Shown here: positions 37,622 through 55,607 of the stretch, in pieces | How positions within the stretch are numbered: the stretch's first letter is position 1 | Layout of the letters: every line of letters starts with the position of its first letter | Origin: Anaerolineae bacterium | GTDB taxonomy: Bacteria; Chloroflexota; Anaerolineae; 4572-78; JBHHXL01 | Assembly: GCA_046757065.1 (NCBI GenBank) | Contig: JBHHXL010000001.1 | Coordinates: forward strand, 1 to 59,713 | Reading direction: 5' to 3' | DNA: 59,713 nt | The notes under the pieces: model-generated | The model's input: the letters and a program-made list of their open reading frames with translations, nothing else | What the model was told of the DNA's origin: nothing | Database searches by the model: none | Made by a program: the position numbers and the translations under genes

Positions 37622-38755
37622 TTAACCGGGCACATCCCAGGCGATCCGCTGCCCGCCCAACCCACTCCGGGACAGGAAGCGGAACACGCGGTAAATATCG
37701 TCCAGGCTCAGCAGCCCTCGGAAATGCAGGCCGTCGTAGACCAGGGCCACCCGGCTGGATGTCCGGGCCAATGCATCCTGGGCCTCGGACAGCGGGGTTG
37801 TGATCGTCACCCTGGGCACGTTTTGCACCGCGTGCATAATGTCGCTGATGGGGCTGTTCCACTGGCCTTGCTCGATGGCGCGGGCCACGTCCTGGCTCGT
37901 CGCCACCCCCAATAGCTGCCGGCTGTACGGGTCTAGCACGGCAAAATCGGATTGCTGGCCGCCCATCACCATTGAAGCAACCTGGCCTACCGGCGTGCCG
38001 GGCTGCAAGGCGACGGGACGCCCGTTGCGCGGCATCGCCTGCCCCACCTGAACGTTGCGCAGCACGCCGCGCGCGGCCACGGCCTGTCCCTCTTGACCGC
38101 CCGCCGTGAAGATGAACAGGGCGATCAGGGCCAGGAGGAACTGGCCGCTAAAAATCCCGATCAGGCCCAGTCCAATCGCCAGGAACCGGCCCACGGTGAC
38201 GGCGGCCTGGGTGGCCCGCTGGTAATCCACGAAGAAGCCCAAAGCGGCCCGAAAGACGCGCCCGCCGTCCAGCGGAAAGGCCGGAAGCATATTAAAGACG
38301 GCCAGCGAGACATTGGCGCTGAACAGAAAAGCCAGGAAGCCGGTTAAACCGGGCCGGGCGAACAGGCCCAGCGAGAGCGGCGCGCCCTGCAAGACGGTCA
38401 GGCTCAGGATGACCGGCAGCAAAAGCAGGGCCAGGATGACGTTCACCGCCGGGCCGGCCAGGGCCACCACCAGCTCTTGCCGGGGCTTTTCGGGCATCCG
38501 CTCCAGGCGGGCCACGCCGCCGATGGGCAACAGGGTAATATCCTTGACCGGAATACCATACCGCAAGGCGGCCAGGCTGTGCCCCAGCTCGTGCAACAGG
38601 ACCAGCGAAAACAAGCCCAGCGTGACCAGCACGCCGTACAGCGGCCCGGCGCTGCCCCCGTAGTTCAACGCCCCCCAGACCAGAATCAACAAAAAGGTCA
38701 GATGTACCTTGATATCGATGCCAAACACTCGTCCCAATTTAATCGACCAGCTCAT
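37622..38755 (-). CDS. M50-family site-2 protease with a C-terminal CBS pair
   Basis: HELGHSLAA (HExxH) in a TM helix, NMLPAFPLDGGRV, and a C-terminal CBS-like pair. ATG at 38755 (MSWSIKLGRVFGI). Confidence 0.85.
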   Translation of the reverse strand: MSWSIKLGRVFGIDIKVHLTFLLILVWGALNYGGSAGPLYGVLVTLGLFSLVLLHELGHSLAALRYGIPVKDITLLPIGGVARLERMPEKPRQELVVALAGPAVNVILALLLLPVILSLTVLQGAPLSLGLFARPGLTGFLAFLFSANVSLAVFNMLPAFPLDGGRVFRAALGFFVDYQRATQAAVTVGRFLAIGLGLIGIFSGQFLLALIALFIFTAGGQEGQAVAARGVLRNVQVGQAMPRNGRPVALQPGTPVGQVASMVMGGQQSDFAVLDPYSRQLLGVATSQDVARAIEQGQWNSPISDIMHAVQNVPRVTITTPLSEAQDALARTSSRVALVYDGLHFRGLLSLDDIYRVFRFLSRSGLGGQRIAWDVPG

Positions 38756-38861
38756 TAGCTCATCTCCACAATCAATACGAACCGCAACTACAGTTAAGGG
38801 AATTATAGCCGACAATTGTTAGAAACAGCATAGAATTAGATTAAGGCAAGATTAGAGCGCG

Positions 38862-40409
38862 CTAGCGGCTCCAACTGAGTTGCTCATCCCACCAGTTGCG
38901 CTGGCCGTAAGGCTCGCCGGGGGGAGGGGTGAAGACGCCCCCGTCAAAGGCGTAAACCCGACGCCGTTCGCCGCTGGCCAGGTGCAGCAGCCAGATGCCC
39001 CAATTCCCGCCCCGGTTGGACAGGAAAGCCAGCCATTCGCCGTCGGGAGACCAGGTCGGCAGGCCGTCAACCGCCGGGTCGTCGGTCAGGCGGCGGCGAC
39101 CGCTGCCGTCGCTGTTGACCAGGTACAAATCCCAATTGCCACCGGGGTTGGCCATATAGGCGATCTGCCCGCCCCCTGGCGACCAGTCGGGGGCGCGGGC
39201 CAGCGCGTCGGCCTGGAGGACCCTGGCGCTGGCCTGCGCCGTTTGGGCGGAGGGAGGAGAGCCCAGGTCGCTTTGCCACAGCCCGCAGCGATTGCCGGTC
39301 CGGTCGCAGCCCACATAGGCAAAGCGCCGCCCGTCGGGGGCAAAGGTCGGGGCCTGGCCCTCCAGGCCCAGGTCCATCTCCGCCGAGCCATCCCCCCGGC
39401 TGGTGTAGAGCCGCCAGCGGCGGTCGCTCTCCCGCCGGGAGGCGTAGATGAGGCGATCTTCGCCTGCCTGGCCCGGCGACCAGTCGGGTTGGGCGTCCTC
39501 CCAAAAGCCACCGACGATACCGGTTTGCCCCCCCGCCAGATCACCGCTCAACAGGGAGCGGGGGCCGGTTGGCTCGCTCCAGGCCCGGTAGGCCAGTTGC
39601 CGGCCGTCGGCAGCCAGGGCCGGTTCCGAAACGCCGTCCAGCGGAAAAAGGCGGTGGTTCGCGCCATCGGCGCTGATCAGGTGGATTTCGTAGACCTGGC
39701 GCTGCGGGGCCGGGTTGAAAAAGGAGAAGGCGATGGTCCCTTCAGGCGACACCCCGGCAGGAGCGGTCGTTGCCGGCGCGGGCGAGGGTGATGGGAGCGG
39801 CAGAGGCGCTGTCGCGGTGGGCGTCGCCGTTGCGGGCCTCGCCGTCAAGGTGGGGTTGGGGAGAACTGCCGGCCCGGTCGGTTCGGGCGCAAGCGCGGGG
39901 GGGGAGGCGGTCGCCGGGGCCGGTCCGGGCGTCGAGGTCATAGTCGCCGTCGCCGGGGGAAGGGCTGTAGCGCTCGCGACCAGCCCGGCCCCGGCCCGGT
40001 TGCTGCCCGGTGGAGTTGCGCTCGCGCTCAGGCTCGGGCTTCCCGGCAACCGGCCCCGCACCACGACGAAGACGCCGGCCACCAGAAGCAGGATCGCGGC
40101 CAAGGCGCCGGCGTTGCCCAGCCAGCGGTTCAGAGCGGTCCGGGCCAGGGAGGGCCGCCGCCCGGTTCGAACCTGCTCCCGGCGCAAAGCCTGCCCGACG
40201 CGATGGCGCAGGGCGGGCGGCGGGTCGGGTTGCCCCAGGGCCGTTTTCAAAACCGGGCCCAATTCAGCCTCGACCTGCCGGGCCTCCGCCAGGCGGTGGG
40301 CGCAGGCAGGGCAGTCCTGCGCGTGCGCTTCAACCCACCGTCGTTCTTCAGCAGACAGGGTTCGATCAAGATAGGCTTCGACCTGCCAGGTCAAATGCTC
40401 AGGGGGCAT
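38862..40409 (-). CDS. Anti-sigma factor (zf-HC2) with a TM helix, PT-rich linker and an extracytoplasmic TolB-like PD40 beta-propeller
   Basis: HAQDCPACAHRL zinc-finger motif, TM ALAAILLLVAGVFVVV, and repeated DWSP(D/G)G..(I/L)A(F/Y) PD40 motifs. ATG at 40409 overlaps the sigma gene by 11 nt. Confidence 0.75.
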   Translation of the reverse strand: MPPEHLTWQVEAYLDRTLSAEERRWVEAHAQDCPACAHRLAEARQVEAELGPVLKTALGQPDPPPALRHRVGQALRREQVRTGRRPSLARTALNRWLGNAGALAAILLLVAGVFVVVRGRLPGSPSLSASATPPGSNRAGAGLVASATALPPATATMTSTPGPAPATASPPALAPEPTGPAVLPNPTLTARPATATPTATAPLPLPSPSPAPATTAPAGVSPEGTIAFSFFNPAPQRQVYEIHLISADGANHRLFPLDGVSEPALAADGRQLAYRAWSEPTGPRSLLSGDLAGGQTGIVGGFWEDAQPDWSPGQAGEDRLIYASRRESDRRWRLYTSRGDGSAEMDLGLEGQAPTFAPDGRRFAYVGCDRTGNRCGLWQSDLGSPPSAQTAQASARVLQADALARAPDWSPGGGQIAYMANPGGNWDLYLVNSDGSGRRRLTDDPAVDGLPTWSPDGEWLAFLSNRGGNWGIWLLHLASGERRRVYAFDGGVFTPPPGEPYGQRNWWDEQLSWSR

Positions 40410-40989
40410 TTTGGGCCTCGGGCGTATGTGGCACCAACCCGCGCCGGGCCAGCGTGTCGGCCAGACGGCGGCGGGCGTTGTGCAGACGGGAATAGACCGT
40501 TCCCACGGGACAATCCAGCAGCGCGGCGATCTCCACCGCCGGGATTTCCAGGTAGTAATGCAAAACGACAACCTCCCTCAGCGGCTCGCTTAAGCCCTGG
40601 ACGGCTTCCCACAAACTGAGGCGATACTCGTTGCGCAGAAAGGCGGTTTCCGGGCCGGGCCGGGCGCTCGAAACGGCAGCTCCGGCCTCTGAGCGGCTTA
40701 GCCAGGGCCAGGGTATGGTTAGCAGGCGTTTACGGCGCAACTGGCTGCGGCAATAATTTAAGGCGATCTGGTACAGCCACGTCCCGAAGCTGGCCTGCCG
40801 GGGGTCGAAGCGGCGCCGCGCTCTATAGGCCCGCAGAAACGTTTCCTGGACCACATCTTCCGCCGCTTGCGGCTGCCGCAGCATAGACCAACCCAGGCGG
40901 TAGATGGCCGCTGCGTGCCGCTGGTACAATTCATCAAAGGCGTCGGTTTCGCCATCTCGCCAGCGCTGGATCAGGGTTTCTTCAGCCAC
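40399..40989 (-). CDS. ECF-type RNA polymerase sigma factor
   Basis: Region 2 (DVVQETFLRAY..) and region 4 (IPAVEIAALLDCPVGTVYSRLHNARRRL). Confidence 0.88.
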   Translation of the reverse strand: MAEETLIQRWRDGETDAFDELYQRHAAAIYRLGWSMLRQPQAAEDVVQETFLRAYRARRRFDPRQASFGTWLYQIALNYCRSQLRRKRLLTIPWPWLSRSEAGAAVSSARPGPETAFLRNEYRLSLWEAVQGLSEPLREVVVLHYYLEIPAVEIAALLDCPVGTVYSRLHNARRRLADTLARRGLVPHTPEAQNAP

Positions 40990-43413: not shown

Positions 43414-44280
43414 ATGCCGTCGATCCTGGTCACCGGCGCGGCGGGCAAGACCGGCCAGGCCGTGGTCCGCGCCCTGGCCCGGCGGGAGGCGGCGGTTCGG
43501 GCCCTGGTTCGGCGCCCAGAGCAGGCGGGGTCGCTGCAAGCCTTGGGGGTGCAAGAGGTGGTGGTCGGGGATATGCGCGACCCGGTGGACCTGGCTCAAG
43601 CGGCCAGGGGAGTGCGGGCCATCTACCACATTTGCCCCAATATGCACCCCGACGAGGTGGCTATCGGCCAGGCGGCGATGGCCGCCGCGCGCCAGGCCGG
43701 TGGAGCCCATTTCGTCTACCACTCCGTGCTGCACCCTCAAACGGAAACGATGCCCCACCACTGGCAAAAGCTGCGCGTCGAGGAGCGCCTCTTCGAGTCC
43801 GGCCTGCCTTACACCATCCTGCAACCGGCGGCCTATATGCAAAATGTGCTGGCCGGCTGGCAGCAAATCGTTGAGGCGGGCCGCTACCGGCTGCCCTACG
43901 CCGTCGAAACCCGGCTGGGGATGGTCGATCTGGAGGACGTGGCCGCCGCCGCTGCCCTCGTTTTGACCCAGGCCGGGCACGAGGGGGCCATCTACGAGCT
44001 GGCCGGCCCCGAGGCTCTGACCCAAACCGAGGTCGCCGCCATCCTCAGCCGGCATCTGGGCCGCCCCATCCGGGCCGAGACCGTGGCCCGCCAGGTCTGG
44101 GAGCAGGACGCGCGCCAGGCGGGTCTGGGCGATTACGCGGTCGAAACGCTGCTCAAGATGTTCGATTATTACGAGCGGCACGGGTTTTGGGGAAACCCCA
44201 ACGTCTTGCACTGGCTGCTGGGTCGCCCGCCGACGACATTCGCCGCCTTCGTCAGGCGCGTGGCGGGCGGTTCCTCTTAG
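43414..44280 (+). CDS. NmrA-like/atypical SDR NAD(P)-binding protein
   Basis: ILVTGAAGKTGQAVVRAL Rossmann motif. 288 aa. Confidence 0.8.
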   Translation: MPSILVTGAAGKTGQAVVRALARREAAVRALVRRPEQAGSLQALGVQEVVVGDMRDPVDLAQAARGVRAIYHICPNMHPDEVAIGQAAMAAARQAGGAHFVYHSVLHPQTETMPHHWQKLRVEERLFESGLPYTILQPAAYMQNVLAGWQQIVEAGRYRLPYAVETRLGMVDLEDVAAAAALVLTQAGHEGAIYELAGPEALTQTEVAAILSRHLGRPIRAETVARQVWEQDARQAGLGDYAVETLLKMFDYYERHGFWGNPNVLHWLLGRPPTTFAAFVRRVAGGSS

Positions 44281-44380
44281 AGCCTATCCGAATAACCCCG
44301 GAGTGCGGGCTTTAGCCCGTTTCAAAGAAGGCAGACTGAAGTCTGCACTCCGATTTCTCGGATGGGCGCTTAATAAGAGA

Positions 44381-44410
44381 TTGAACCCAATTGCGAGCCT
44401 GGTGTATAAT
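44381..44410 (+). promoter_or_regulatory. Candidate promoter of the CHAT / caspase-TIR operon
   Basis: TTGAAC-(18 nt)-TATAAT. The -35 lies inside GAGATTGAACCCAAT, a half-site-like copy of the 44-nt palindromic repeat. Confidence 0.45.
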
Positions 44411-44445: not shown

Positions 44446-44529
44446 GACGAAGGACGATGGACCGCGAAGCGTGACCAACATTCTATCAAAGGACCCGATT
44501 TTCGTCATTTGTCCTTCGTCTTTCGTCAC
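44446..44529. repeat. GACGAA-type hairpin element, left copy
   Basis: GACGAAGGAC (44447-44456) pairs with GTCCTTCGTC (44511-44520). The tail TTCGTCATTTGTCCTTCGTCTTTCGTC is homologous to 48766-48792. Confidence 0.65.
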
Positions 44530-44581: not shown

Positions 44582-46690
44582 ATGCCCATCGCTCCAGGCG
44601 ATCTGAACCGGGATTTCGAAGAGTTTGACGAGCACCTCCCCCTGCAACAGGCCCTCGACCAAATTAACGCCGGCCCAAGCAGCCCGGCCTACCTCGTCGT
44701 CAGGTTTGCCGGCGGCCGGTTTGCGATCCTGAGCCGGCGCGAGCTGACCCAGGCCCTGGCTGCCCTGCCGGCGCGGGACAGAGCTTCCGCGCTCAAAGCC
44801 AGGCTGGGCGACCTGTTTGCGGGCCTGGCCGCAGCGCCCATCGAGCAGGCGAGCATAGACCCCTTTTTCGATCTGAACTACGCCCTGCTTCAAGCCCCCG
44901 ACGGGCGGCGGGTCGTCGTGGACGGGGGCGGTCAGGTGGCCGGCATCCTGACCGAAGCGCCGGCGACGTTTCGCGGCATCGACGACGCCTGGGCCAAGGG
45001 CGGGCTGACCCTGCGCGGCGAGCCGGAACCGGAGGCGGAGGCAGCGGCTGAAGCGGAAAGCCGCTGGATCAACGTCGAGCTTCGGGATGAGGCGATGCAA
45101 ACGGTCGATCCCCGGACGAAGCCCCTGCAACCCGGCCAGACCTACAACCTCAGCTTCGATGTGGACGTCGAGGCCCGCGCCCGGTCGCTGCTGGAGAACG
45201 CCCTCTTTGAATACAGGTTCCGGGAGGGGGAGGCGGAAGTGGACATCACCATCCGCCTGGAGAGCAGCGATTTCGAGATTTTGACCGAGCCGCAAAAACT
45301 GCGCGTACCCCGCAACGGCAAATCGAAGAACAAAGCCCGGTTCGATGTTGTGCCGCGCAAGGAAGGTCCGGCGGTGATCAACGCCGTGCTGCTCAAGGAC
45401 GGCAATTTCGTGCAACTGCTGACGCTGAAGTTCACCGTCGTCGAGGGGGAGATGTTCGCTCAGGAGGCGCTGGGCCGCCCGGTGGAAGCGGCCTTTTTGA
45501 TCCGGCCCCGCAACCTGAACCTGACCATCCTGCACAACGGGGCGGCCTTCCAGCTCATTATGTCCGGCGCGGTTGCGGCCACGGCCACGTTGCCCATCAG
45601 CCGGGATTACCTCAGGGCCAAAATCAATCAGGCGCGGCAGGTGCTGCAAAAGGACGTGGTCTATATGCGGGACTCGGCGGGGACGCTGATTTACCAGGCG
45701 GGGATAGACATTCCCCCGGAAGCCAACCGGGAGGCGTTGCGCCGCCTGGCGGATGTGGGCTACGGCCTCTACACCGACATCTTCTACGGCCCGGACGCCG
45801 GCGCGCAGGCCAATCTCCTGGGCGACCGGCTGCGCCAGATGGCTAAGGAGGACCGGCTGAAGATACAAATCTTCTCCCAACACTTCAACCTGCCCTGGGG
45901 CCTGCTCTACATGGCCGACGAGGACGAATACGACCCGGATCACATCCGGCCGGAGCTGTTCCTGGGCCTGAAGCACATCATCGAACACATCCCGCTCCAG
46001 CCGAGCATGCAGGTCACGGATCGCCGCATCGACAGCGTCTCGGGTCTGGCCGTCAGCCTCAACGTCAACACCGACATCGACCAGCAAACGAATTACCCCC
46101 TCATCGCCAACCAGGTGGAGTATTGGGATAAAATCAAGGAAATCGGGGGCGCTCAGGTGGTCCTTCGCAAGACGCCCGACGACGTCTTGCAGGCGCTCAA
46201 AAGCGCCGACACGTCGGACCAACTCCTCTACTTCTACTGCCACGCCGTATCCAGGGACCTTGAGGAAGAAGGCGGGGTCGAAGAGTCATTCTTGAAGATG
46301 ACCGGCGGCGGGCGGTTGACGCTCAAAGACCTGAAACGGTTCGCTTCGGCCCGCAAGCCCCTGCCCGGCGAGCCGCTGGTCTTCATCAACGCCTGCGAGT
46401 CCGCCGAGCTGTCGCCCCTGTTTTACGACGGCTTCGTGCCCTATTTTATGCAGAAAGGGGCGCGGGGCGTGATCGGCACCGAATGTGAAACGCCGGCCCT
46501 GTTCGCCCTGGAGTGGGCCAATCGTTTCTTCGACCGGTTTTTGAGCGGCGAGCCGCTGGGCCAGATTTTCCTGGAACTGCGCCAGGAGTTTTACCAACGG
46601 CACAACAACTTGCTGGGCCTGCTCTACGCCCTGTACGTCGATGGCGACACGCAGGTTGTGCCCGGCCTGCGGCTGCCCGACGCGGGTTAA
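44582..46690 (+). CDS. CHAT-domain (caspase-fold) protease with a large uncharacterised N-terminal region
   Basis: AAGGAGGAGG RBS. C-terminal His/Cys dyad context LLYFYCHAVS ... LVFINACESAE ... GARGVIG. N-terminus has two CBS-like stretches and a beta-rich segment. The track start at 44303 is rejected. Confidence 0.72.
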   Translation: MPIAPGDLNRDFEEFDEHLPLQQALDQINAGPSSPAYLVVRFAGGRFAILSRRELTQALAALPARDRASALKARLGDLFAGLAAAPIEQASIDPFFDLNYALLQAPDGRRVVVDGGGQVAGILTEAPATFRGIDDAWAKGGLTLRGEPEPEAEAAAEAESRWINVELRDEAMQTVDPRTKPLQPGQTYNLSFDVDVEARARSLLENALFEYRFREGEAEVDITIRLESSDFEILTEPQKLRVPRNGKSKNKARFDVVPRKEGPAVINAVLLKDGNFVQLLTLKFTVVEGEMFAQEALGRPVEAAFLIRPRNLNLTILHNGAAFQLIMSGAVAATATLPISRDYLRAKINQARQVLQKDVVYMRDSAGTLIYQAGIDIPPEANREALRRLADVGYGLYTDIFYGPDAGAQANLLGDRLRQMAKEDRLKIQIFSQHFNLPWGLLYMADEDEYDPDHIRPELFLGLKHIIEHIPLQPSMQVTDRRIDSVSGLAVSLNVNTDIDQQTNYPLIANQVEYWDKIKEIGGAQVVLRKTPDDVLQALKSADTSDQLLYFYCHAVSRDLEEEGGVEESFLKMTGGGRLTLKDLKRFASARKPLPGEPLVFINACESAELSPLFYDGFVPYFMQKGARGVIGTECETPALFALEWANRFFDRFLSGEPLGQIFLELRQEFYQRHNNLLGLLYALYVDGDTQVVPGLRLPDAG

Positions 46691-46705
46691 GCAAGGAGGG
46701 AACTT

Positions 46706-47950
46706 ATGCCCGCCCTGGACAACGCCCACGCCCTGGTGGTGGGCATTGCCAACTACCGGAACATCAACAAACTGCCGCCGACCGTCCTCAAGGACGCCCA
46801 GGACATCTGCGACCTACTGATCGACCCGGACCACTGCGGCTACCCGGCGGACAACGTGGAATTGCTGCCGGACGACCAGGCCACCGGGCCCGCCCTGCGC
46901 CGGGCGCTGGCCAGGCTGGCCGAACGCAGCAACCCCGATTCCACCGTCTTCATCTACCTTTCCGCTCACGGCGGGCGGGTGGAGTCGGGTCCGCACGCCG
47001 ATGAATATCTGCTGCCCGTGGACGCGGTTTTTGAAACGAGCGAAGCGGTGGCCCGGACGGCTATCTCCGGCCAGACCTTCACCGAGGCCCTGCGGGCCAT
47101 CCCGGCCCGCAAGCTGGTGGTCGTCTTCGATTGTTGCCACGCCGCCGGCATCGGCCAGCCCAAAGACCCGACCGCGCCGGGCATCAAAACCGGCCTGCCG
47201 GAGGCTTACTACGACCGGCTCCTGGAGGGGCGAGGGCGGGTCATCCTGGCCTCGTCGCGCAGCACCGAGCTGTCCTGGGTGCTGCCCGGGGCCGAAAACA
47301 GCCTCTTCACCCAACACCTGCTGGCCGGCCTGCGGGGGGGCATCCCCAGCGAAGACGGCCTGATCCGCATCTTCGACCTGTTCGAGTATCTCCAGCCCAG
47401 GGTCACCGGTGACAAACCCATCCAGCATCCCGTGTTCAAGGCCGAGGTCGAAGAGAATTTCCCGCTGGCCCTGTACCTGGGCGGGCAGAAGGGCGTGGTG
47501 TCCCGCGATGAGGAGGGCTATCGCTACGACGCGTACATCAGCTACGTCGATCGGGAGCCGGACGCCGCCTGGGTCTGGGAGACGCTGGTGCCGCGTCTGG
47601 AAGAGGCCGGCCTGCGGGTGGCGGTCTCCGGGGACGTTGAGGAACCCGGCGTGGCCCGCGTGGTCAACATCGAGCGCGGCATCCGGCAGGCCAAACGAAC
47701 CTTGATCGTGCTGACCGAGACCTACCTGGCCGACCACATGGCCGGGTTCGAGAACGTTCTGGCCCAGACGATGGGGGTTCAGGAGGGAACCTATCGCCTG
47801 CTGCCGGTCAAAATCGAGGCGATTGACGACCGCCGCCTGCCAACGCGGCTGAGTATGCTGTCGACGCTCAATCTGGCCCATCCCCGCCGCGCCGGGCGCG
47901 AGTTTGAGCGGCTGGTACGCGCCCTGCAAGGGCCGCTGCCGCGCCGGTAG
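46706..47950 (+). CDS. Caspase (peptidase C14)-TIR fusion protein
   Basis: ALVVGIANY.., VFIYLSAHGG (His), LVVVFDCCHAAG (Cys). C-terminal TIR-like YDAYISYVDREPDAAW ... TLIVLTETYLADHMAGFENVL. AAGGAGGG RBS, 15 nt after the CHAT stop. Confidence 0.72.
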   Translation: MPALDNAHALVVGIANYRNINKLPPTVLKDAQDICDLLIDPDHCGYPADNVELLPDDQATGPALRRALARLAERSNPDSTVFIYLSAHGGRVESGPHADEYLLPVDAVFETSEAVARTAISGQTFTEALRAIPARKLVVVFDCCHAAGIGQPKDPTAPGIKTGLPEAYYDRLLEGRGRVILASSRSTELSWVLPGAENSLFTQHLLAGLRGGIPSEDGLIRIFDLFEYLQPRVTGDKPIQHPVFKAEVEENFPLALYLGGQKGVVSRDEEGYRYDAYISYVDREPDAAWVWETLVPRLEEAGLRVAVSGDVEEPGVARVVNIERGIRQAKRTLIVLTETYLADHMAGFENVLAQTMGVQEGTYRLLPVKIEAIDDRRLPTRLSMLSTLNLAHPRRAGREFERLVRALQGPLPRR

Positions 47951-53811: not shown

Positions 53812-55485
53812 TTACGGCAGATCGTTTGAGGCCTGGGTCAAGGTTAACTTCCCGGCCCGGGTCAGCAGCTTGTAGCCCTGGCTGGGCACGGTGACGATGA
53901 ACTCCGGGTTGTCCTGGTTGACCTCCAGCTTTTCGCGCAAGGTGTTGATGGCCGCCGCCAGGCGCATGCGCAGGCCGGCGATGTTCGGTTTCCCGTACAG
54001 CGTGGTGGCGATCTCCTCGTAGGTGCAAACCTCGCCCTGCTTGCCGTGAAGCATTTTGAGCAGAGCCGTCTCCGTGGCAGACAGGCGGGCGACCAGCTCC
54101 CCCTGGTGATCGAGGACCAGGCCATCACGCAGGCTGACCGTAATGCCCAGCGGGGGCAGGAAATCGCTCTGTGGGCGCTGGTACTGGACCTCCGGCGGCA
54201 GCTCGGGCTGGTTCCAGAGGGTGACCGTGAAGTTGCTGGCCCCCAGGCGGAAACTTTGGCCCAGGTAAATGGCCGTGTGTTCATCCGGAGCCACCTTTTT
54301 GCCCTCAATAAAGACCCCGCCCCGGCTGTTCAAATCCTTGACGAAGATTTGCTGCTCCTGATAGCTGAGCATCGCGTGCGGGCGCGACACCAACGGGGAA
54401 TTGATGACAACGTCGCAATCGGGGTTGCGCCCGATGACAACTTCCGTGTTGGGCACCAGGCGACGCCGTTCGATCAGTTGATTGCCCTCCTTGATCAGCA
54501 GGTGGGCGACGCCGTGCAAACTGCGCATAGTGTGGTTCTTGTAGCGCGCCAGCCAGTCCTCGAACTGTAGCCAGAAGGGTAACTCCAGACGGGCCGTCAC
54601 CGCCAGCTTTGGGTCGGGCAGTTCAGCGGTCCCGCCGATGGCGAACATCTTGTAGATGTGATGGGTAAGTTTCTGGGCCAGGTCCCCAAAATCGTCGTAC
54701 TTAAGTTGCTTCATCTCGGTGAGCAGCGCCGGCGGGGTTACCTTGCGGGGGATGGTCAACACCCAGGGCGTCCGCATCCCGATAGCCACGCCCAGGGCAA
54801 TATATTGCGCCGGCTCCACCGGCTGGCCCAGGTCCAGCAAGGTGAATTTGGCTCCCTGCAAATTGCGCCGCATCTTACACAACGGCTCATCTGATTTGTC
54901 GGCCAGCGCCTGGGTCAAGGCCCGGCCCTGCAATTTTGTCGAGCGAAAGGCCCGGGCATAGGTGTGGTAAAGGTCATAATGCTGCCGGAAGTTGTTGTTC
55001 AACAGGAAGAAAAATGGCCGTTGAGTGCCCGATAGGGCCTTTAAGCCGGAACAACCCTGGTGGCAAAAGGCGCAATATTCCGACATCAACCGTTTCATGC
55101 GCCGTCGCTCTGATAGATCACGGGCCAGTTTGGGCAACGCTGCGGCAAGGCGGGCGTGATCGGTGTAGGTCAGGAGGGTGCGGTTTTGCAAGATTGGGAT
55201 CGAGGGGCTGCCCTCCCGCCTGACGACGACGAAGGGCTTGTTCAAACCCAGGGCAATCCCGATTTCTATCAAAATGTCAGGGTTGGGGGTGGACAGTTCA
55301 AAGATGGCAAACGAGGTTAGAAAAATATTCTGGCAGGTCTTTAGCAGACGGTCGGACTGAACGGCTTGTGGATCAGCGTAGTACGATCGCAGACCGGCCG
55401 GTTCCAGGGCGCTGGCCGCAGTCTCGCGGAATCGTTCGGCCTCTGGCAACGCCGGGTCATAGTCGATCAGGTACAGGCCTCGCAT
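53812..55485 (-). CDS. FHA-domain regulator with a C-terminal OmpR/PhoB-type winged-helix and two N-terminal NDT/TIR-like Rossmannoid domains
   Basis: FHA: VVIGRNPDCDVVINSPLVSRPHAML...VKDLNSRGGVFIEG. wHTH: LSATETALLKMLHG...YEEIA...LRMRLAAAINTLREKL...VPSQGYKL. N-terminus: FAIFELSTPNPDILIEIGIALGLNKPFVVV and LLDLGQPVEPAQYIALGVAIGMRTPWVL. ATG at 55485 after GGAGG. Confidence 0.68.
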   Translation of the reverse strand: MRGLYLIDYDPALPEAERFRETAASALEPAGLRSYYADPQAVQSDRLLKTCQNIFLTSFAIFELSTPNPDILIEIGIALGLNKPFVVVRREGSPSIPILQNRTLLTYTDHARLAAALPKLARDLSERRRMKRLMSEYCAFCHQGCSGLKALSGTQRPFFFLLNNNFRQHYDLYHTYARAFRSTKLQGRALTQALADKSDEPLCKMRRNLQGAKFTLLDLGQPVEPAQYIALGVAIGMRTPWVLTIPRKVTPPALLTEMKQLKYDDFGDLAQKLTHHIYKMFAIGGTAELPDPKLAVTARLELPFWLQFEDWLARYKNHTMRSLHGVAHLLIKEGNQLIERRRLVPNTEVVIGRNPDCDVVINSPLVSRPHAMLSYQEQQIFVKDLNSRGGVFIEGKKVAPDEHTAIYLGQSFRLGASNFTVTLWNQPELPPEVQYQRPQSDFLPPLGITVSLRDGLVLDHQGELVARLSATETALLKMLHGKQGEVCTYEEIATTLYGKPNIAGLRMRLAAAINTLREKLEVNQDNPEFIVTVPSQGYKLLTRAGKLTLTQASNDLP

Positions 55486-55607
55486 GTGATCCTCCCTCGC
55501 CATCGATTTACCCAACCCCGGATGGCCTTTAATAGTACCACACTTTAAGGAAAATCAAAACTGGCCCGGCAGTTGGGGGTGTATTTCACTTTTGGGGCAA
55601 GTTTTGC

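Follow-up and report, generated by a model that had tools for sequence, protein, structure and literature searches.

Adjacent CBS-CHAT and caspase-TIR protease genes in an Anaerolineae genome: conserved module or lineage-specific juxtaposition?

Two genes encoding caspase-fold proteases lie next to one another in a chromosomal contig of an Anaerolineae metagenome-assembled genome (JBHHXL010000001.1), of which a stretch of 59,713 nt (59.7 kb, referred to here as the window) was analysed. Gene 1 (44582-46690, + strand; ATG at 44582, TAA at 46688-46690) encodes a 702 aa protein with a CBS domain pair and a CHAT protease domain (CBS-CHAT), and gene 2 (46706-47950, + strand) encodes a 414 aa caspase-TIR protein, annotated at NCBI as 'caspase family protein'. 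Do they form a self-contained two-gene module, as proposed in a preliminary description made from the sequence alone, or have they come together in this lineage only? The question can be approached through domain identities, the state of the catalytic residues, gene-neighbourhood statistics from about 125 related loci, and gene fusions. Each gene proves to be a member of a separate, widespread bacterial family of cell-death/immunity genes. The domains and residues expected of such a module are present, but co-occurrence of the two genes largely fails. At roughly even confidence, the arrangement is read here as specific to this lineage: two conflict-system proteases that evolve separately have come to lie together, and the caspase-TIR gene is orphaned from its usual TIR-nSTAND1 sensor.

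The N-terminal domain of gene 2 (46727..47452, + strand; residues 8-249) scores well above the gathering cut-off of Pfam Peptidase_C14 (E = 3.2e-19; 70 bits, cut-off 21.4) and carries the metacaspase-type motifs S-A-H88-G-G and D142-C-C144-H-A-A-G, making the protein a member of this family. The catalytic residues His88 (nt 46967-46969) and Cys144 (nt 47135-47137), along with D142 and H145, are invariant among gene 2 homologues (alignments of 35-120). Between the p20-like and p10-like parts is a linker (residues ~148-162) that is poorly conserved. The nearest solved structures are the metacaspases Yca1 (yeast) and MCA4 (plant), GSU0716 and MALT1; since the closest of these are metacaspases, cleavage after basic residues is likely, and the enzyme probably cuts after Arg or Lys. 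The AlphaFold2 model of gene 2 was poor (predicted local distance difference test, pLDDT, 57; shallow, near-identical alignment) and was used only for coarse fold matches. The protein also matches the NCBIfam family 'caspase, EACC1-associated type' (caspase_w_EACC1) at 105.7 bits, below the cut-off of 140.

Fused to the caspase is a TIR domain (47534..47914, + strand; residues 277-403; Pfam TIR_2, PF13676, E = 1.1e-12, 48.9 bits, cut-off 28), so the caspase-TIR fusion recognised earlier from the sequence is confirmed by both Pfam models. A Glu had been noticed near the expected catalytic position of the TIR, and this residue, Glu349 (nt 47750-47752), is indeed part of a Phe348-Glu349-Asn350 motif that is invariant in 120 homologues. 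Scaffold-type TLR TIRs also align a Glu at this position, and at -4 the Trp of the WxxxE motif has no conserved counterpart (the position is variable, Met345 in gene 2). In sequence and fold, the domain is nearest to the TIRs of TLR6, TLR1, TLR10, MyD88 and Hydra TRR-2; the bacterial TIRs BtpA and AbTir rank behind these.

If gene 2 belongs to a module with gene 1, then a CHAT gene might be expected beside its relatives. The partner seen instead is a different one. Neighbourhoods were compared at 38 loci with full-length caspase-TIR orthologues, using up to 10 kb of flank per side. At 27 of the loci there is an adjacent large open reading frame (ORF) fronted by a second TIR, which with a single exception shares the strand of the caspase-TIR gene, and the annotated examples are TIR_2-nSTAND1-WD40 proteins of 950-1500 aa (Pfam). 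Pfam scans of apparent exceptions found nSTAND1-TPR or nSTAND1-WD40 proteins (L009, L029, L034), a TIR_2-nSTAND1 protein (L022) and a small TIR_2 protein (L033), and one caspase-TIR locus (L005) is collinear with the gene 1 locus L046 described below. A TIR and/or nSTAND1 partner is present at 33 of the 38 loci. The five orphan-looking loci are L013, L016, L017, L020 and L023, two of which are short contigs. Counts made with a custom 'stand' hidden Markov model were discarded, as the profile was contaminated by TIR sequence. We read gene 2 as the effector component of an NLR-like system, of which the instance in the window is incomplete, the sensor gene being absent from it. The preliminary description had listed no gasdermin, CRISPR, STAND or SLOG partner; this is correct for the 59.7 kb window (Pfam scans of neighbours and large ORFs), while the family as a whole is normally STAND-associated. 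The sensor of gene 2 may be encoded elsewhere in the genome, or gene 1 may serve in its place.

Caspase-TIR proteins share 72-80% identity between Chloroflexi and cyanobacteria (e.g., Cylindrospermum, Pleurocapsa) and 53-68% identity with members from KSB1, Actinomycetota and Planctomycetota (family P0121-P0240). Such cross-phylum conservation is unusually high and atypical for immune effectors. A set of shorter TIR matches to gene 2 (150-255 aa) was considered as possible new 'X-TIR' architectures and rejected; the one that was aligned, P0404 (255 aa, on a 720 kb contig), is the C-terminal half of a caspase-TIR, starting at about residue 160, after the p20/p10 linker. Genes of this kind (223-255 aa) could reflect gene splitting, frameshifts or errors of gene calling. 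PADLOC holds no model for the caspase-TIR/TIR-nSTAND1-WD40 pair, the term 'caspase-TIR' was not found in a literature search, and in a survey of cyanobacterial orthocaspases TIR_2 accompanied one of 473 proteins.

The TIRs of the partner proteins share 30-42% identity with the effector TIR, and most have no Glu at the aligned position (F-T-D, F-I-D, F-G-D and the like; e.g., L002:3478-3882), where the effector keeps F-E-N. This suggests that the sensor TIR is a dead scaffold and the effector TIR a live one. The effector subtype of TIR (60-62% identity) is also found behind the adaptor domain EAD1 and is therefore marked as a payload or effector domain, which fits systems of the Kaur/Aravind type. 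We infer the activation logic, the substrates and the defence role of both genes along the following lines. A TIR-nSTAND1-WD40/TPR sensor would oligomerise upon a trigger, and its N-terminal TIR, mostly without the catalytic Glu, would nucleate the effector TIRs through TIR-TIR contacts. Clustering of the effector could then switch on the metacaspase-like protease, and probably also Glu349-dependent cleavage of NAD+, with cell death or growth arrest as the presumed outcome. Gene 1, which is usually solitary or beside a small protein with two transmembrane helices, would act as a ligand-gated CHAT protease, with its CBS pair as an adenosine-nucleotide-type sensor or a dimerisation module.

The gene 1 protein comprises, in order, a CBS pair, an Ig/macroglobulin-like beta-sandwich, a helical region and a CHAT protease domain, and was modelled by AlphaFold2 with a mean pLDDT of 82.9. 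The caspase-fold CHAT domain (45854..46687, + strand; residues 425-702) matches Pfam CHAT (PF12770) over residues 425-660 (E = 2.6e-10; 40.6 bits, cut-off 24). With a score above the gathering cut-off and a His/Cys dyad, His554 (nt 46241-46243) and Cys605 (nt 46394-46396), gene 1 is a CHAT family member, and the dyad that had been suspected from its sequence context is invariant in an alignment of 40 homologues. Foldseek comparison of the model with PDB placed the Craspase TPR-CHAT/Csx29 first (E = 1.8e-11), followed by separase, the CHAT anti-sigma factor DdvA and SAVED-CHAT. Both genes of the pair are thus real caspase-fold protease genes and, judging from their intact catalytic residues, apparently active.

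The N-terminal region of gene 1 had previously been described as holding two CBS-like stretches and an Ig-like segment, and both can now be assigned. The CBS pair, a Bateman-like module (44582..44959, + strand; residues 1-126), appears in the AlphaFold2 model as two beta-alpha-beta-beta-alpha units, and a search of PDB sequences with a profile built on residues 1-135 gave 18 matches, 16 of them CBS-domain proteins (best E = 6.8e-7; full-pair match, 1.5e-4). Fold and profile both support a CBS pair, while the Pfam CBS model is not significant on the single sequence. By our reading of the family alignment, the canonical ribose-binding Ser/Thr and Asp positions look degenerate, and because they are not conserved, ligand gating of gene 1 is uncertain; the pair is best described as a putative ligand-sensing or dimerising N-terminus. 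A TIR-like fold in this region, which could have allowed TIR-TIR docking, was considered and rejected, as the N-terminus is a CBS pair. A disordered linker (residues 127-156) leads to the beta-sandwich (45059..45451, + strand; residues ~160-290; AlphaFold2 and Foldseek), which matches the macroglobulin domains of complement C3c/C5, and amylopullulanase (E = 1e-4 to 2e-6), and weakly Pfam DUF7363. The helical region occupies residues 341-423 of the model.

An exhaustive search of 1.84 billion representatives returned 3673 relatives of gene 1, of which 353 representative clusters reach E <= 1e-30. Homologues of gene 1 share 45-61% identity, less than is seen among caspase-TIR proteins. The conserved unit of this family is residues ~150-700, including the beta-sandwich; the CBS pair is limited to a Chloroflexi-type subset, and soil homologues match from about residue 145-160 onward. 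In other members the core bears different N-termini: an LCAT-like alpha/beta-hydrolase (lipase) in P0260 and P0273, and a multicopper-oxidase-like region in P0331. In P0302 and P0336 (~1400 aa), a part of ~300 aa is followed by TIR_2, a second CHAT and then a gene 1-type core, and in P0302 (L136:8001-12212) the core has Ser where the catalytic Cys should be (NVSES for NACES). P0302 itself sits in a MoxR 'ternary' conflict system, with the gene order C14-TCAD2, unknown gene, bpMoxR AAA gene, unknown gene, P0302. Varied N-termini of this sort are a pattern typical of modular conflict proteins.

The neighbourhoods of gene 1 relatives were surveyed at ~86 loci (±10 kb around each homologue, mostly on metagenomic contigs). 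A FhaA_N-FHA/FHA gene pair lies directly downstream of CBS-CHAT, on the same strand, at 14 loci (contexts of this type: L048-L054, L056, L057, L062, L064, L066, L068, L072 and L087; only 10 nt separate them at L050:10111-11369). For some Anaerolineae this points, tentatively, to FHA/Ser-Thr-kinase signalling in the envelope or in division. At 12 loci the downstream gene is x174, among them that of the closest distinct homologue, P0002 (61% identity). The x174 protein (~175 aa) has two transmembrane helices and an Ala/Glu-rich coiled coil with a weak match to the RNase_Y_N coiled coil, and belongs to no Pfam family (L046:6091-6615, L059:2689-3216, L058, L060, L061, L067, L070, L073, L081, L082 and L132). 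It could be a substrate of the CBS-CHAT protease or a membrane effector.

These contexts raise the possibility that gene 1 has no part in immunity but serves development or the cell cycle in filamentous Chloroflexi, as a protease similar to HetF or separase, and that its position next to gene 2 has no functional meaning. In Actinobacteria, FhaA/FHA pairs are members of operons for the cell envelope and cell division, and the 14 loci with such a pair directly downstream, the presence of separase among the best Foldseek matches, the lack of any PADLOC model matching gene 1 and the location in a window that is not a defence island all agree with a role of this kind. The family does not behave accordingly: the gene 1 tree intermingles FhaA and x174 contexts, so that context differs between close relatives, N-terminal modules are swapped (CBS, lipase, TIR-CHAT), and members occur within MoxR and nSTAND1 conflict systems, which is behaviour typical of conflict genes. 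We regard a developmental role as unlikely.

When the two families are compared, they hardly meet. A gene 1 homologue was found by tblastn within 10 kb at none of the 38 caspase-TIR loci, and a caspase-TIR gene lies near a gene 1 homologue in one lineage only (L046/047/055) of the ~86 loci, 3.8 kb away, in the order CBS-CHAT, x174, TIR-nSTAND1, nSTAND1-WD40, caspase-TIR. Cross-matching of the gene 1 and gene 2 match lists likewise placed both in the L046 lineage only, and direct adjacency of the pair is seen in this window alone, which does not support a conserved two-gene operon. The closest relatives of the two genes occupy unrelated contexts: L132 with x174, L017 as an orphan beside MoaC, and L133 with TIR-nSTAND1-WD40. 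Origin of the window arrangement by a recent deletion from an L046-like island was considered and rejected, given that the flanks are unrelated and the L046 CHAT (56% identity) is not the closest homologue.

The reading frames and coordinates of the two genes, the gap of 15 nt and the AGGAGG-type ribosome-binding sites were all correctly given in the preliminary description: AAGGAGGAGG stands ahead of gene 1 and AAGGAGG is found 6 nt ahead of gene 2. A longer ORF beginning with GTG at 44303 was ruled out as gene 1, because the homologues begin at the MPI... N-terminus of the 702 aa form. About 170 nt upstream of gene 1 is a promoter-like site (TTGAAC-18 nt-TATAAT; 44381..44410, + strand), recognised by pattern match alone (10/12 consensus matches), which could serve gene 1 and gene 2, and perhaps the sugar-transferase gene that follows. 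The pair had been called tightly linked, and the small gap bears this out, but gene 2 is similarly close to the sugar-transferase gene (18 nt, with no terminator between), so that the spacing provides weak evidence for coupling.

Several observations weigh against a mere juxtaposition of separately evolving genes. The two genes are probably co-transcribed, given the 15 nt gap behind a single promoter-like site, and two adjoining caspase-fold proteases have the look of the characterised SAVED-CHAT/PCaspase cascade. The gene 1 core and caspase-TIR do share an island in the L046 lineage. Long-form proteins with the gene 1 core adjoin nSTAND1 NTPases at L110 and L124, the former being a three-gene array (L110:3982-11626) of a 390 aa CHAT-like protein, a 1066 aa nSTAND1 NTPase and a 1043 aa protein in which a 500 aa N-terminus that could not be named precedes a gene 1-type CHAT core. 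Another CHAT protease lies directly upstream of a gene 1 homologue at 5-6 loci, and the core is fused to TIR_2-CHAT in P0302 and P0336, the former within the MoxR/C14-TCAD2 system. The neighbourhood counts, moreover, cover 10 kb to either side of each homologue on what are mostly metagenomic contigs. The fusions and neighbourhoods of the gene 1 core therefore indicate that both genes come from the same conflict-system toolkit of multicellular bacteria, a computational description of which was given by Kaur, Burroughs, Iyer and Aravind, and because this core recurs with TIR, CHAT, nSTAND1 and MoxR components, a functional link between gene 1 and gene 2 in this genome is possible. A lineage-specific rewiring, in which CBS-CHAT activates a sensor-less caspase-TIR, is plausible, with one occurrence alone to support it.

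Such a link would most simply take the form of the two-tier cascade put forward in the preliminary description, working without an NTPase. A ligand bound by the CBS pair would activate the CHAT protease, which would cleave and activate caspase-TIR, for example in linker 148-162 or in the linker between caspase and TIR, leading to promiscuous metacaspase-like proteolysis, TIR NADase activity and abortive infection; CBS-CHAT would then replace the TIR-nSTAND1 sensor as activator. Consistent with this, all catalytic residues are intact, the genes sit close together behind one promoter-like site, cleavage and activation of PCaspase by SAVED-CHAT supplies an experimental precedent, and the gene 1 core is repeatedly linked by fusion or neighbourhood to TIR, CHAT, C14 and nSTAND1. 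The slot downstream of gene 1 varies and elsewhere holds x174, a candidate membrane effector, which would suit the logic of a protease-effector module, and the natural split of P0404 at about residue 160 marks the linker as a natural break point. What weakens the proposal is that the pairing is not conserved: the genes adjoin in this window only, the one other lineage that has both carries a sensor gene between them, and the nearest relatives of each are found apart. Gene 2 is also as closely spaced to an unrelated sugar-transferase gene as to gene 1, and the degenerate ribose-binding positions of the CBS pair make a ligand switch uncertain. A cascade is thus a possible explanation but a doubtful one. 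Similarly tentative is its extended form, in which a CBS-gated CHAT protease replaces the TIR-nSTAND1 sensor in a minimal NTPase-free cascade and, more broadly, the caspase-TIR/TIR-nSTAND1-WD40 pair would constitute a 'TIR-apoptosome' with a dead sensor TIR recruiting the caspase. If true, the executioner would join promiscuous proteolysis with TIR-mediated destruction of NAD+, in an architecture that has yet to be reported as a defence system.

Information could also flow in the reverse, Thoeris-like direction, the alternative given in the preliminary description. The TIR of gene 2 would produce a nucleotide from NAD+, and its binding to the gene 1 CBS pair would switch on CHAT as the executioner. 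The invariant Glu349 is in keeping with a TIR that makes such a product, the TIR product of type IV Thoeris activates a caspase-like protease, and CBS pairs generally bind adenosine-containing ligands. We know of no CBS domain that binds cADPR-type signals. In the great majority of cases no TIR gene lies within 10 kb of CBS-CHAT, many members of the gene 1 family have no CBS pair, and caspase-TIR proteins are associated with TIR-nSTAND1 partners rather than with CBS proteins. The trigger of the TIR and the role of the caspase fused to it would also be left without explanation. This direction of signalling appears very improbable, and a juxtaposition of two proteases from separate systems remains the reading adopted here.

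The remainder of the window is housekeeping in character and does not resemble a defence island: an NmrA-like reductase, the sugar transferase, extracytoplasmic function (ECF) sigma and anti-sigma factors, an RpoD-type sigma factor, xanthine dehydrogenase, TrkH, ABC1 kinase and others. It contains no second TIR gene and no x174 gene. Between the NmrA-like gene and gene 1 are nested inverted repeats (44279-44370), directly after the NmrA stop codon, with 13 nt outer arms and 17 nt inner arms, and a 17 nt inverted repeat (44446-44527) in the putative 5′ untranslated region of gene 1. Folding of these 5′ untranslated and intergenic repeats is not significant (z = -1.4), they match nothing in Rfam and are not repeated elsewhere in the window; an Rfam search of the whole window also gave no match. 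About 4 kb upstream of the two genes, on the - strand, is an ECF sigma factor gene (40399-40989), followed by genes for a zf-HC2 anti-sigma protein that also carries PD40 beta-propeller repeats (38862-40571) and for a CBS domain-containing M50 site-2 protease (37622-38815), all on the same strand. The region 37622-40989 looks like a sigma/anti-sigma module of the regulated intramembrane proteolysis type. A 567 aa protein encoded at 53812-55515 (- strand) has an FHA domain and a C-terminal OmpR-type DNA-binding domain (Trans_reg_C).

What the window displays, then, is a reshuffling of conflict-system parts: two intact death-protease genes and no sensor NTPase. The main interest lies in the caspase-TIR/TIR-nSTAND1-WD40 pairing and in the modular CHAT-core family; the two-gene arrangement in the window adds little. 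Caspase-TIR is a very strongly conserved effector, encoded almost always with a TIR-nSTAND1-WD40/TPR NTPase, and our literature search found no description of this pairing. The pair would be a direct bacterial test case for recruitment of a caspase through TIR-TIR contacts, one that would connect the scaffold logic of TLR/MyD88 with that of the apoptosome and inflammasome. The gene 1 core family, with its interchangeable N-termini, extends the sensor-CHAT theme past SAVED-CHAT and TPR-CHAT. Should the pair in the window prove to be a cascade, it would offer a system that is both compact and easy to test.

How does the locus compare with known systems? The earlier impression that it matches no named system stands: PADLOC and NCBIfam models returned a generic 'caspase' match, the sub-threshold caspase_w_EACC1 match and a weak match to ThsB (E = 0.0086). 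Thoeris types I and II, gasdermin-protease pairs and Craspase do not apply, the window containing no ThsA (SIR2/SLOG or Macro-TM), gasdermin, Cas7-11 or CRISPR array. The Craspase complex (type III-E gRAMP/Cas7-11 with TPR-CHAT Csx29) nevertheless provides the best structural matches to the C-terminal half of gene 1 (7zoq, 8eex and 8d9f; E = 1e-11 to 1e-9), at 11-16% identity, but the locus has no Cas7-11, CRISPR array, TPR or Csx30. Type IV Thoeris (Rousset et al. 2025) also combines a TIR domain with a caspase-like protease. In that system a separate TIR protein, ThsB, makes an N7-cyclic ADP-ribose (N7-cADPR) signal, and the caspase-like effector is a promiscuous, Arg-specific executioner whose C-terminal domain is proposed to bind the signal. 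The locus is not of this type: in gene 2 the TIR and the caspase are parts of one protein, the window has neither a separate ThsB nor any other second TIR gene, and the partner of the family is a STAND NTPase.

Caspase-STAND (Avs-type) modules such as EACC1-KrAvs12 (bioRxiv 10.1101/2025.11.14.688446) resemble the gene 2 family in having a caspase-like protease governed by a STAND protein in Chloroflexi and actinobacteria, and the gene 2 caspase is related to the EACC1-associated type. However, there is no EACC1, Pepco or MBL substrate gene, the score is under the family cut-off, and the caspase of the gene 2 family is a polypeptide separate from the STAND protein, to which it is linked through TIR. 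The nSTAND1/EAD conflict systems (Kaur, Burroughs, Iyer, Aravind; eLife 2020 PMC7159879, eLife 2021 PMC8195603) share more features. They employ caspase, CHAT and TIR effectors and, like the families described here, occur in filamentous Chloroflexi, cyanobacteria and actinobacteria. The gene 2 family adjoins an nSTAND1 protein with an N-terminal TIR, i.e., the same domain on sensor and effector, its TIR subtype is found behind EAD1, and a MoxR/TCAD2 ternary system includes a gene 1 relative. The differences are that the window has no NTPase and that the adaptor would be a TIR rather than a dedicated EAD or Death-like domain. A shared-domain nSTAND1 system is thus absent from the 59.7 kb window but is found for the gene 2 family at 33 of 38 loci, and neither the caspase-TIR + TIR-nSTAND1-WD40 pair nor the CBS-CHAT architecture was found described in PMC7159879 or PMC8195603.

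Parallels extend to animal immunity, since the gene 2 TIR is closest to those of TLR1, TLR6, TLR10 and MyD88, and recruitment of a caspase by an oligomerised NLR-like NTPase via a homotypic adaptor would parallel CARD-mediated recruitment in the apoptosome and inflammasome. Homology beyond the domain level is unproven, and recruitment is deduced from gene neighbourhoods alone. For the two adjoining genes, the nearest counterpart is the SAVED-CHAT to PCaspase cascade, shown experimentally for the type III-B CRISPR-CBASS hybrid of Haliangium ochraceum (Steens et al.; bioRxiv 10.1101/2023.06.23.546230). The locus does not belong to that system: the sensor part of gene 1 is a CBS pair plus an Ig-like domain, no match to the PADLOC SAVED_CHAT model was obtained at E <= 1, the window has neither CRISPR nor a CBASS cyclase and so no source of cyclic oligoadenylate, gene 2 carries a TIR, and the pairing is not conserved. 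In both, however, a sensor is fused to CHAT and a second caspase-like protease is encoded nearby, and the gene 1 model matches the SAVED-CHAT structure 8tl0 (E ~1e-6). If the two genes work as a pair at all, the locus is most like a cascade in which a sensor-CHAT protease acts on a caspase.

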